A stretch of DNA of 64,000 bases from Candidatus Woesearchaeota archaeon (lineage in GTDB: Archaea > Nanobdellota > Nanobdellia > Woesearchaeales > GW2011-AR9), in assembly GCA_016179955.1 (NCBI GenBank), contig JACPCD010000005.1, positions 10,323 to 74,322 on the forward strand, in the 5' to 3' direction. The notes under the pieces were generated by a model. It was not told the origin of the DNA. It was given only the letters and a program-made list of their open reading frames with translations, and ran no database searches. Below, in pieces: positions 49,022 through 50,316 of this stretch. The first letter of the stretch is position 1. Each line of letters starts with the position of its first letter. Position numbers and translations under genes: made by a program.

Positions 49022-49702
49022 TTATTTTTTCTCCAATGATGTAACCATCAAATCCCTCTGTTTCAGGATCTCTAGGTTGTTGTTGAACCCTTCCTGATTA
49101 AAGAGCCCGGCGCTGCCGCCAACGAAAACATGGACACCTCGCTCTGCAAGTTGTGGCAAGGTCTTTTCATTGATTGCCCCGTCAGCAACCAGCTTTAAAG
49201 AATCATTTTTTCCGCAGCGGAATTCCCGTAACTGGTCAATCTTATGAAGCACGGCATGCTCAAATTTTTGTCCAGCAAACCCTGGCTGTACAGTCATAAA
49301 CATCAAGTAATCAATCTGTCCGATATAAGGATAGATTCTTTCGAGTGAAGTCTCCGGATTGATAACCAAACCGGCTTCTAATCCTTCCCGTTTGATCAGC
49401 TCAATGACATAGTGGGGGTCTTCTGCCGCCTCGATATGGAAATAAATAATATTCACCCCGGCATCCTTAAGGCGAGAAATAAACTTTGATGGCCGCCGCA
49501 CCATCAGGTGGGCATCAAATTTCTTATGGGTAACACTTCGCAATTCTTTAATAAGATCTATATTTAATGCGATATTTTCAACAAAATCACCGTCCATGAT
49601 ATCAAAATGGAACATATCTATCCCCGCGTTGAGCAGGGAACGGACATCCCGATAAAGATAAAGCTGGCTTGCGCACATCAAGGAAGCAGTAATGATAATC
49701 AT
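49022..49702 (-). CDS. rpe: Ribulose-phosphate 3-epimerase family
   Basis: FHFDIMDGDFVENI, HLMV, and MTVQPGFAGQKF motifs. Confidence 0.8.
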   Translation of the reverse strand: MIIITASLMCASQLYLYRDVRSLLNAGIDMFHFDIMDGDFVENIALNIDLIKELRSVTHKKFDAHLMVRRPSKFISRLKDAGVNIIYFHIEAAEDPHYVIELIKREGLEAGLVINPETSLERIYPYIGQIDYLMFMTVQPGFAGQKFEHAVLHKIDQLREFRCGKNDSLKLVADGAINEKTLPQLAERGVHVFVGGSAGLFNQEGFNNNLEILKQRDLMVTSLEKK

Positions 49703-49724
49703 ATTCCTATTTGCTGATATACAG

Positions 49725-49732
49725 TATAAATA
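49725..49732 (-). promoter_or_regulatory. TATA-like TATAAATA for the rpe-led minus-strand operon
   Basis: Centre is 26.5 nt from ATG 49702. A degenerate decamer-like TTATGGAATT follows at 49735-49744. Confidence 0.5.
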
Positions 49733-49791
49733 CCTTATGGAATTATAAAGAATTTGCTTATGTGCTGCCTAAGATGGGTTTGGGTTCTGTA

Positions 49792-49956
49792 GGCTCTGTC
49801 CTAAATCTCGCTGACGCTCGGGTTAGTGGATTCAAAGCTTTGTTGTTGCTTCTTTAAGGCTGACGTTCCCCGGATGGGACAACCCCCTTGTCAGCAGGAT
49901 ATTCTGGTTGGATAAGCTTTGACCTGATGCCACTAACCTACATTTAGGACAGAGCC
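49792..49956. repeat. 165-bp GC-richer nested inverted repeat (rod-like); candidate MITE or structured RNA
   Basis: Perfect 15-nt terminal arms GGCTCTGTCCTAAAT (49792-49806) / ATTTAGGACAGAGCC (49942-49956). Inner stems at 49821-49829/49930-49938 (GGTTAGTGG/CCACTAACC), 49832-49840/49914-49922 and 49859-49864/49890-49895. Confidence 0.55.
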
Positions 49957-50294
49957 GTTTCTGCACTTAATTCTGAGTCCTGGCAGTATTTAAAGTTATA
50001 GTGTAAAGCAATAGATGCCTTTTGAAGTTCTTTTCCAAGATAAGCAGCATGATCCAATAATGACACCCACCCTTCATCAATAATTTTATACATAATCTCT
50101 TCAGGGGTCTTTCCTTTTATGATTCTGATTAACTTGTGCTCATTAGTACAATGTCCTACTTCTATCATCTGCTGCTCCGGGTTAATGCGTATTAAGAAAT
50201 AACCGGCCGGGTCCAGAACCCATTTCTGCCGAAACCCGTCAGCATCTATCGCTTCTTTGATCTCTTCTTTGATTTCCCACCATTTTCCTTTCAT
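49944..50294 (-). CDS. Small protein, DUF4346-like (tentative)
   Basis: LDPAGYFLIRI...IEVGH...LLDHAAYLGKELQKA resembles DUF4346 as I recall it. Start moved to Met7 (ATG 50294), 26.5 nt from the TATA centre. The last 4 codons and the stop lie inside the right arm of the inverted repeat. Confidence 0.4.
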   Translation of the reverse strand: MKGKWWEIKEEIKEAIDADGFRQKWVLDPAGYFLIRINPEQQMIEVGHCTNEHKLIRIIKGKTPEEIMYKIIDEGWVSLLDHAAYLGKELQKASIALHYNFKYCQDSELSAETALS

Positions 50295-50316
50295 TCCATA
50301 AATTTGGGTCATAATA

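Follow-up and report, generated by a model that had tools for sequence, protein, structure and literature searches.

The 165-bp segment at positions 49792-49956 of the window, by which we mean the whole 64,000-nt stretch of DNA analysed here, is almost certainly a MITE, i.e. a non-coding and non-autonomous DNA transposon that uses the termini of an insertion sequence (IS). An earlier note on this DNA had left the choice between a miniature inverted-repeat element that landed in the 3′ end of a gene and a structured RNA. The first of these options proves to be the right one since the terminus is shared with an IS, related copies are bounded by perfect 9-bp target duplications and the orthologues of the interrupted protein lack its Ala-Leu-Ser end. 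Two properties of the wider family, a central hairpin conserved across classes with different termini and integration at the edge of promoters, are each backed by independent tests. The window belongs to contig C11 of a 0.95-Mb assembly (G000; 81% complete, 44% G+C) and the homologues of its proteins are found in Woesearchaeota and Nanoarchaeota MAGs, which identifies the host as a small archaeon of the DPANN type. The element and its surroundings are organized as follows:

49783-49791, no strand: left-hand copy of the duplicated 9-bp target site, GGTTCTGTA, matching the right copy at 7/9 positions at the exact boundaries
49792-49806, plus strand: left terminal inverted repeat (TIR), GGCTCTGTCCTAAAT, perfect complement of 49942-49956
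49807-49820, plus strand: asymmetric left-arm insert without a right-arm partner, CTCGCTGACGCTCG
49821-49829, plus strand: left strand of the subterminal stem, GGTTAGTGG, whose partner is CCACTAACC at 49930-49938
49832-49840, plus strand: left strand of the third stem, TCAAAGCTT, whose partner is AAGCTTTGA at 49914-49922
49859-49895, plus strand: central (apical) hairpin with the outer stem GCTGAC (49859-49864) / GTCAGC (49890-49895)
49923-49929, plus strand: asymmetric right-arm bulge, CCTGATG (CCTnAKG in other subfamilies)
49942-49956, minus strand: right TIR, exact complement of the left TIR, closing the DUF4346 gene
49957-49965, no strand: right-hand copy of the duplicated target site, GTTTCTGCA, within the coding tail (Ser-Ala-Glu-Thr)
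49944-50294, minus strand: host gene for a small DUF4346 (pterin-binding-like) protein (Pfam PF14251, 1.5e-22)
49022-49702, minus strand: downstream gene for ribulose-phosphate 3-epimerase (Pfam PF00834, 8e-57)

The nested repeats described earlier are thus all present in the window. The 15-mer TIR occurs at these two sites only, while about 0.11 chance matches would be expected even with two mismatches allowed. In subfamilies whose termini differ (alignments A2 and A4) the left-arm insert is conserved in the form CTCGCTnnCGCTCGG. The apical hairpin reads GCTGAC-GT-TCCCCGGATGGGACAACCCCCT-T-GTCAGC with the conserved motif TCCCCGGATGGGACAACCCCCT at 49867-49888. The rod-like fold beats 200 of 200 shuffled sequences on both strands (−65 kcal/mol and z = −3.9 on the plus strand, z = −4.5 on the minus strand). 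At 0.50 the G+C content of the element lies above that of the adjacent spacer (0.39) and of the genome (0.44), as had been claimed for the segment relative to its flanks. The lack of protein-coding potential was likewise borne out: the only ORFs overlapping the 165 bp are 44-48 aa long and either exit the element or stop at its edge. What had been taken as a weak hint of a target-site duplication is a 7/9 match of the flanks in the exact register, and the calculated chance of at least 7/9 in one fixed register is ~1e-3.

The element sits between two co-directional genes and supplies the end of one of them. On the minus strand the sequence across the right boundary is ..AC|G GCT CTG TCC TAA, where the bases before the bar belong to the DUF4346 gene and the rest to the element. 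The gene had been said to take its last four codons and the TAA from the repeat; this is correct for the TAA, but instead of four whole codons the element gives the last base of a Thr codon followed by Ala-Leu-Ser. The final three residues and the stop codon of the DUF4346 protein are, in other words, transposon-derived. The PF14251 domain is complete and ends at residue 112 of the 122-aa ORF, ten residues ahead of the stop. Sixteen DUF4346 orthologues (58-69% identical in the alignment) all have Y.QD, mostly followed by S/P-E/P-L/F, and end in unrelated tails of 1-13 residues past the conserved QDSEL. An ALS end, i.e. the same C-terminus in orthologues without the repeat, which the earlier note had seen as speaking against an insertion, occurs in 0 of the 16. 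With the domain intact and the orthologue tails unrelated, the insertion probably changed only a dispensable tail. The orthologues begin MKG(K/R)WF, which corresponds to the ATG at 50294 (MKGKWW...) given in the earlier note and disagrees with the start of the longest ORF at 50312; as all of them start at this position, the protein is probably 116 and not 122 aa long.

These data allow a tentative reconstruction of the insertion event. The copy would have entered the non-conserved C-terminal tail of the DUF4346 gene, and about seven original codons (reconstructed as ...SAET-KPILGST*) would have been exchanged for Ala-Leu-Ser-stop from the right terminus. Joining the flanks via one copy of the duplication yields a putative original tail ...SELSAETKPILGST*, and the empty site would be expected to read ...GCCTAAGATGGGTTTG, a single 9-mer, then CTTAATTCTGAG. 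A protein search for the pre-insertion allele returned a closest orthologue that is only 72% identical and no empty-site allele.

The terminus of the element also bounds an 887-bp IS in the same genome (G000:C39:1-887), the first 15-17 nt of which are identical to the left TIR. This IS starts with GGCTCTGTCCTAAATCT, ends with TTTTAGGACAGAGCC and contains one 268-codon ORF encoding a DDE transposase (Pfam DDE_Tnp_1, PF01609, 7e-11, 42.7 bits against a cut-off of 23). The best NCBIfam model is transpos_IS5_2 (3e-36), whose score of 125 bits stays under the curated cut-off of 140, and a tblastn comparison with IS903B of enterobacterial plasmids gives ~25% identity (E ~1e-4). An IS903B copy that we read directly has the terminus GGCTTTGTTGAATAAATC, resembling that of the element and the IS. 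G029, a genome of the same order, contains an IS that shares the terminus of the C39 IS and is 67% identical to it; there it is multicopy and breaks the assembly. The flanks on two G029 contigs are mutual reverse complements (TTTTCAAAG), which gives a 9-bp duplication. The C39 IS begins at the first base of its contig, and its transposase frame reads on across the right terminus to a stop in the flanking DNA. To the right the IS is bordered by CGGCAATTC|CAAAAC|ACTTAAAAA, with a gene start ~25 nt further on.

A second IS5-like IS in this genome (G000:C19:13848-14781, 934 bp) has the terminus GGCGTTATTGAAAAGT and the duplication GGTTTGGG(G), and its transposase is 28% identical to that of the C39 IS. 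It lies 6 nt upstream of a TATA box (CCCCAAACC|ACATCT|TTTAAATA).

By analogy with IS903, an IS903-like DDE transposase of the IS5 family would bind both 15-bp termini and excise the element, and reinsertion at staggered cuts 9 bp apart would produce the 9-bp target duplication. One candidate for this enzyme is encoded by the 887-bp IS with the same termini elsewhere in the genome; that this particular transposase mobilizes the element is what we infer from the matching termini and the duplication length. Similarity between the element and the C39 IS is confined to the outer 17-18 bases. Since they have nothing in common beyond these terminal bases, the element is not a simple deletion derivative of the IS. 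Such an origin was ruled out also on the ground that the core motif of the element is found in neither IS.

Within the 81%-complete assembly there is only one full-length copy with these termini, which counts against the MITE. Solo right ends of the same MITE family are located at C2:2667-2706, C10:891-914 and C27:24353-24375 (extended end GGCTCTGTCCTAAATGTAGGTTAG); they are probably truncated copies and point to earlier activity in this genome. A further remnant is listed at C11:87405-87426, and the remnants consist of the terminus plus GTAGGTTAGCAGC, after which the sequence is unrelated. Three full-length copies with 74-76% identity (BLAST) are present in genome G031, and in two of them the flanking 9-mers are identical (TATCCAGGC in one, TTTTATACA in the other), whereas in the third they match at 8/9 positions. 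A covariance model (R1) built from 14 copies and run on 41 related genomes matched about 150 copies in 20 of them, with a maximum of 29 per genome; together with the single full copy and the solo ends at home, this settles whether the element is multicopy, a point raised in the earlier note. Among 68 full-length matches the flanking 9-mers agree at 9/9 positions in 24 and at 8/9 in 10, compared with 0 and 1 of 67, respectively, when the boundaries were displaced by 40 nt. The exact core motif was detected in 18 of 251 genomes of the window's order, with up to 31 copies and a patchy distribution, while a reversed control pattern had no matches. A pattern search of viral contigs gave 4 matches.

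The single full-length copy with these termini in the assembly could in principle make one think of a chance palindrome or an assembly artefact. We regard this as practically out of the question, as no shuffled sequence attains the observed repeat or fold and full-length homologues are present both in other genomes and in public assemblies of independent origin. One of the latter (L124) contains a 164-bp copy with the same terminus and a perfect 9-bp duplication.

A spread of these elements beyond DPANN into the Methanosarcinales was considered and rejected. Seven MAGs were tested, six labelled Methanosarcinales and one 'Euryarchaeota archaeon'; they are 1.0-1.7 Mb in size and lack McrA, and for this reason the Methanosarcinales labels, which look wrong and are unreliable, were treated as such. 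The records named 'uncultured Methanosarcinales archaeon' that contain Woesearchaeota-type MITEs are L124, L073, L099, L156, L145 and L069.

The extent of base pairing in the family is an argument for the alternative, namely that the segment encodes a structured non-coding RNA, either as a gene in its own right or as a mobile module, and that the termini are the base of an RNA helix. Among 95 distinct copies, 93.8% of cells stay paired and 35 of the 37 pairs show double changes; covariation in homologous copies was one of the checks proposed in the earlier note. The subterminal helix is 96.6% paired with double changes in 10 of its 10 pairs, conservation extends to the apical motif and the asymmetric bulges, the fold is stabler than that of shuffled sequences, and the inner hairpin is closed by a conserved U.G (66 cells, against 3 with A.C or C.A). 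The 93.8% pairing of the arms also counts against a simple MITE, because it exceeds what transposase binding alone would need. However, folding as RNA would be expected to leave more G.U than A.C mismatches, and the two are balanced in the terminal helix (21 versus 26) as well as in helices 2 and 3 (11 versus 9 and 15 versus 13, with one helix-end position set aside in each). The balance thus holds except at three helix-end positions, and the outer stem of the core, examined in a separate sample, has 11 G.U versus 7 A.C. The orientation of the copies relative to flanking ORFs is random (11 versus 14 and 11 versus 19), and both genes next to the copy in the window lie on the strand opposite to that with the conserved motif. 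Rfam had no match for the window region at E <= 1 or for ten diverse copies at E <= 0.1, apart from an unrelated tRNA, and ARAGORN detected no tRNA or tmRNA in the window. Finally, 9-bp duplications and termini that match an IS characterize a mobile DNA unit. The balanced wobble counts and the random orientation give no pointer to one RNA strand; the self-complementarity is therefore selected or somehow renewed without any single RNA strand being indicated. We consider an RNA gene very improbable, and this option of the earlier note is abandoned in favour of the MITE.

The central hairpin (C4-GNAN-G4..C5) is the best-conserved block of the superfamily, even in 38 copies that were not found via the motif. 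A pattern scan with one genome per species located the motif in dozens of MAGs of Woesearchaeota, Nanoarchaeota and those simply labelled 'archaeon', and it occurs in rod-shaped elements with differing termini, each with its own 8-9-bp duplication. The outer stem around the motif varies freely in sequence yet keeps its pairing, i.e. it covaries. A MITE subfamily in genome G001, which belongs to another genus, has the same core and the terminus GGCGTTATTGAAAAGT, which is the terminus of the C19 IS described above. A third MITE family with this core, in the genome of the window itself, has the terminus GTATTTGTTTAGC, a length of ~133 bp, an 8-bp duplication and four copies:

G000 C8:6139-6271: MITE copy with terminus GTATTTGTTTAGC
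G000 C27:11182-11314: MITE copy with terminus GTATTTGTTTAGC
G000 C39:29724-29856: MITE copy with terminus GTATTTGTTTAGC
G000 C9:9816-10011: MITE copy with terminus GTATTTGTTTAGC

In the C9 copy an insert of ~62 nt splits the hairpin between GTGACA and TCCCC. An IS with the terminus GTATTTGTTTAGC was not found in the G000 assembly. The core thus recurs in combination with several kinds of termini; two of these correspond to distinct transposases, and neither of the two IS contains the core. These comparisons show that the rod-like fold is a family trait and that the superfamily, in archaea of the Woesearchaeota/Nanoarchaeota type, keeps complementary arms and an apical hairpin whatever the termini.

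We also considered an alternative hairpin, or switch, in which the G-run of the core pairs with the 3′ C-run; it was dropped, as this pairing is not consistently kept and several copies change the C-run without compensation. A triple-compensated core, TCTCC / GAGAC / CCCTC in place of TCCCC / GGGAC / CCCCC, was seen in two copies with different termini, L048 (G001) and L214:1323-1478 (G017). This variant is a hint that both C-runs may serve as partners of the G-run.

To see where the family inserts, we analysed 34 copies with intact duplications that had been picked regardless of their flanks, and in 25 of them a TATA-like hexamer begins 4-9 nt (mode 6) past the duplication on one side, compared with 1-3 of 34 in outer control windows. 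An ATG usually follows ~20-25 nt past the TATA box, as expected for leaderless genes. From 20 hand-picked flanks with the 6-nt spacing we derived the consensus N9-ARAAcm-TTTAWAWA, the other side being patternless, and the TATA box can be faced by either end of the element (17 versus 10). The same layout of duplication, hexamer and TATA box was present in 6 of the 6 IS copies checked. Insertions thus usually fall at the upstream edge of core promoters, in the order 9 bp, BRE-like hexamer and TATA. Superfamily copies are often found as neighbouring pairs, either back to back or nested at a shared target 9-mer (G003:C21:40032-40290, C24:7995-8272 and C37:16088-16356; G004:C8:38381-38632; L079:2818-3200), and such pairs are consistent with repeated use of one promoter-edge site. 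Since IS903 has a target preference of its own, the symmetric WTTYA-N9-TRAAW (PMC2577343), an intrinsic sequence preference is one possible cause of the pattern. Recognition of the promoter bound by TBP/TFB is another.

Why should the hairpin be kept when the termini change to suit different transposases? This retention suggests a functional nucleic-acid module, such as a synapsis hinge or a host-factor site, that would be needed by very short elements. Our best guess, made with low confidence, is that the apical hairpin acts at the level of the element's DNA, e.g. as a hinge or host-factor site that aids the pairing of the ends. The combined proposal, according to which the element integrates at promoter edges, perhaps by reading TBP/TFB-bound or bent DNA, and retains its hairpin as such a module, is put forward tentatively, and we would rate its chances as slightly short of even.

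The copy in the window fits this picture less well than most of its relatives. Its duplication is imperfect (7/9) and, unlike most copies of the family, it has no recognizable TATA box, both of which count against the MITE. On the side of the epimerase gene the flank is TACAGAACC|CAAACC|CATCTTAG, where the hexamer is BRE-like and no TATA box comes next, and the ATG of the epimerase gene is 89 nt away from the element instead of the ~47 nt implied by the layout of duplication, hexamer, TATA box and ATG. The promoter region of the epimerase gene lies between this gene and the element, with TATA-like boxes at 49725-49733 and 49743-49750. As the duplication has drifted to 7/9, the insertion looks old and probably is. 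One possibility is an old insertion beside a promoter that later decayed or was displaced; another is that the A-rich half-site by itself drew the copy to an off-target position. Between the element and the epimerase gene, the spacer also contains a 21-nt direct repeat (15/21; 49709-49729 and 49752-49772) with a spacing of 43 nt, and on subtraction of 43 nt the distance from the element to the ATG comes close to the usual layout of the family. A 43-bp promoter duplication displacing the copy from the canonical register is nevertheless unproven, a 15/21 repeat being within chance by calculation.

The same location raises the question of whether this copy has been domesticated, either to provide the DUF4346 gene with its 3′ end (stop codon, 3′-UTR hairpin or terminator) or to insulate it from the epimerase promoter. 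In favour of this, the element supplies the stop codon, it lies between two co-directional genes, and its arms have stayed intact, in contrast to the duplication, of which 7/9 positions still match. However, the last contrast is not statistically secure, since it involves two changes in 18 nt (calculated). The terminus read in any of the three frames hits a stop within 4-8 codons, so that supplying a stop needs no selection, and the orthologue tails are variable and dispensable. On the minus strand, moreover, no T run follows the hairpin. We therefore regard domestication as unlikely, and take the copy as a MITE that came to rest in the tail of a gene.

The family resembles IS903 in several respects: a DDE_Tnp_1 transposase of ~270-300 aa, an IS length of ~0.9-1.06 kb, a 9-bp target duplication, termini starting GGCTyTGT...TAAATC (compared directly with the IS903B copy) and a defined pattern around the 9-bp target. 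It differs in that the transposase is only ~25% identical to that of IS903B and the host is a DPANN archaeon. The target here is one-sided (N9, BRE-like hexamer, TATA) and not a symmetric palindrome, and the passenger has a conserved structured core common to classes with different termini. MITEs mobilized by IS5-family transposases are likewise non-coding elements that share only the termini with the IS.

Among bacterial elements, the Correia elements (NEMIS) of Neisseria are similar in being MITEs of ~100-160 bp that have inverted termini and occur in many copies between genes, often adjoining or overlapping gene ends and promoters. They are reported to have a central binding site for a host factor (IHF), and no autonomous partner of theirs is known. 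In contrast to the archaeal family, they duplicate TA and not 9 bp; here the central block is a G+C-rich hairpin, and an autonomous IS is present. The Rickettsia palindromic elements, palindromic repeats of ~100-150 bp, can sit within coding genes and alter the protein. Those are translated through in frame, whereas here the reading frame closes after three codons of the element, and the copies of the family are mostly intergenic. Closer to the host of the window, the archaeal MITEs of Sulfolobus (SM1-SM4) and of haloarchaea are likewise short and non-coding with IS-matching termini, and a census of archaeal MITEs, which reports counts only, lists a Woesearchaeota genome with 105 MITEs per Mb (PMC11602168). 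In the searchable literature we found no description of a conserved apical hairpin, of one core combined with different termini or of promoter-edge insertion in such elements.

For the annotation of this genome the 165 bp should be entered as a mobile element and not as an RNA gene. The class of element is an ordinary one and its identification is secure; it is the hairpin conserved across terminus classes and the integration at promoter edges that are apparently undescribed. The hundreds of insertions represent a natural data set on how a DDE transposase finds archaeal promoters, and the conserved core raises the question of what short elements require for their movement besides their termini. 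In DPANN archaea, whose genomes are tiny and whose intergenic regions are very short, parking upstream of BRE/TATA spares the genes, and this avoidance of gene disruption may explain the success of the element in these organisms. At the same time, promoters could be rewired or insulated by it. Should targeting depend on TBP/TFB, it would be a prokaryotic counterpart of the integration, tethered to promoters or to a polymerase, that is known from some eukaryotic elements.
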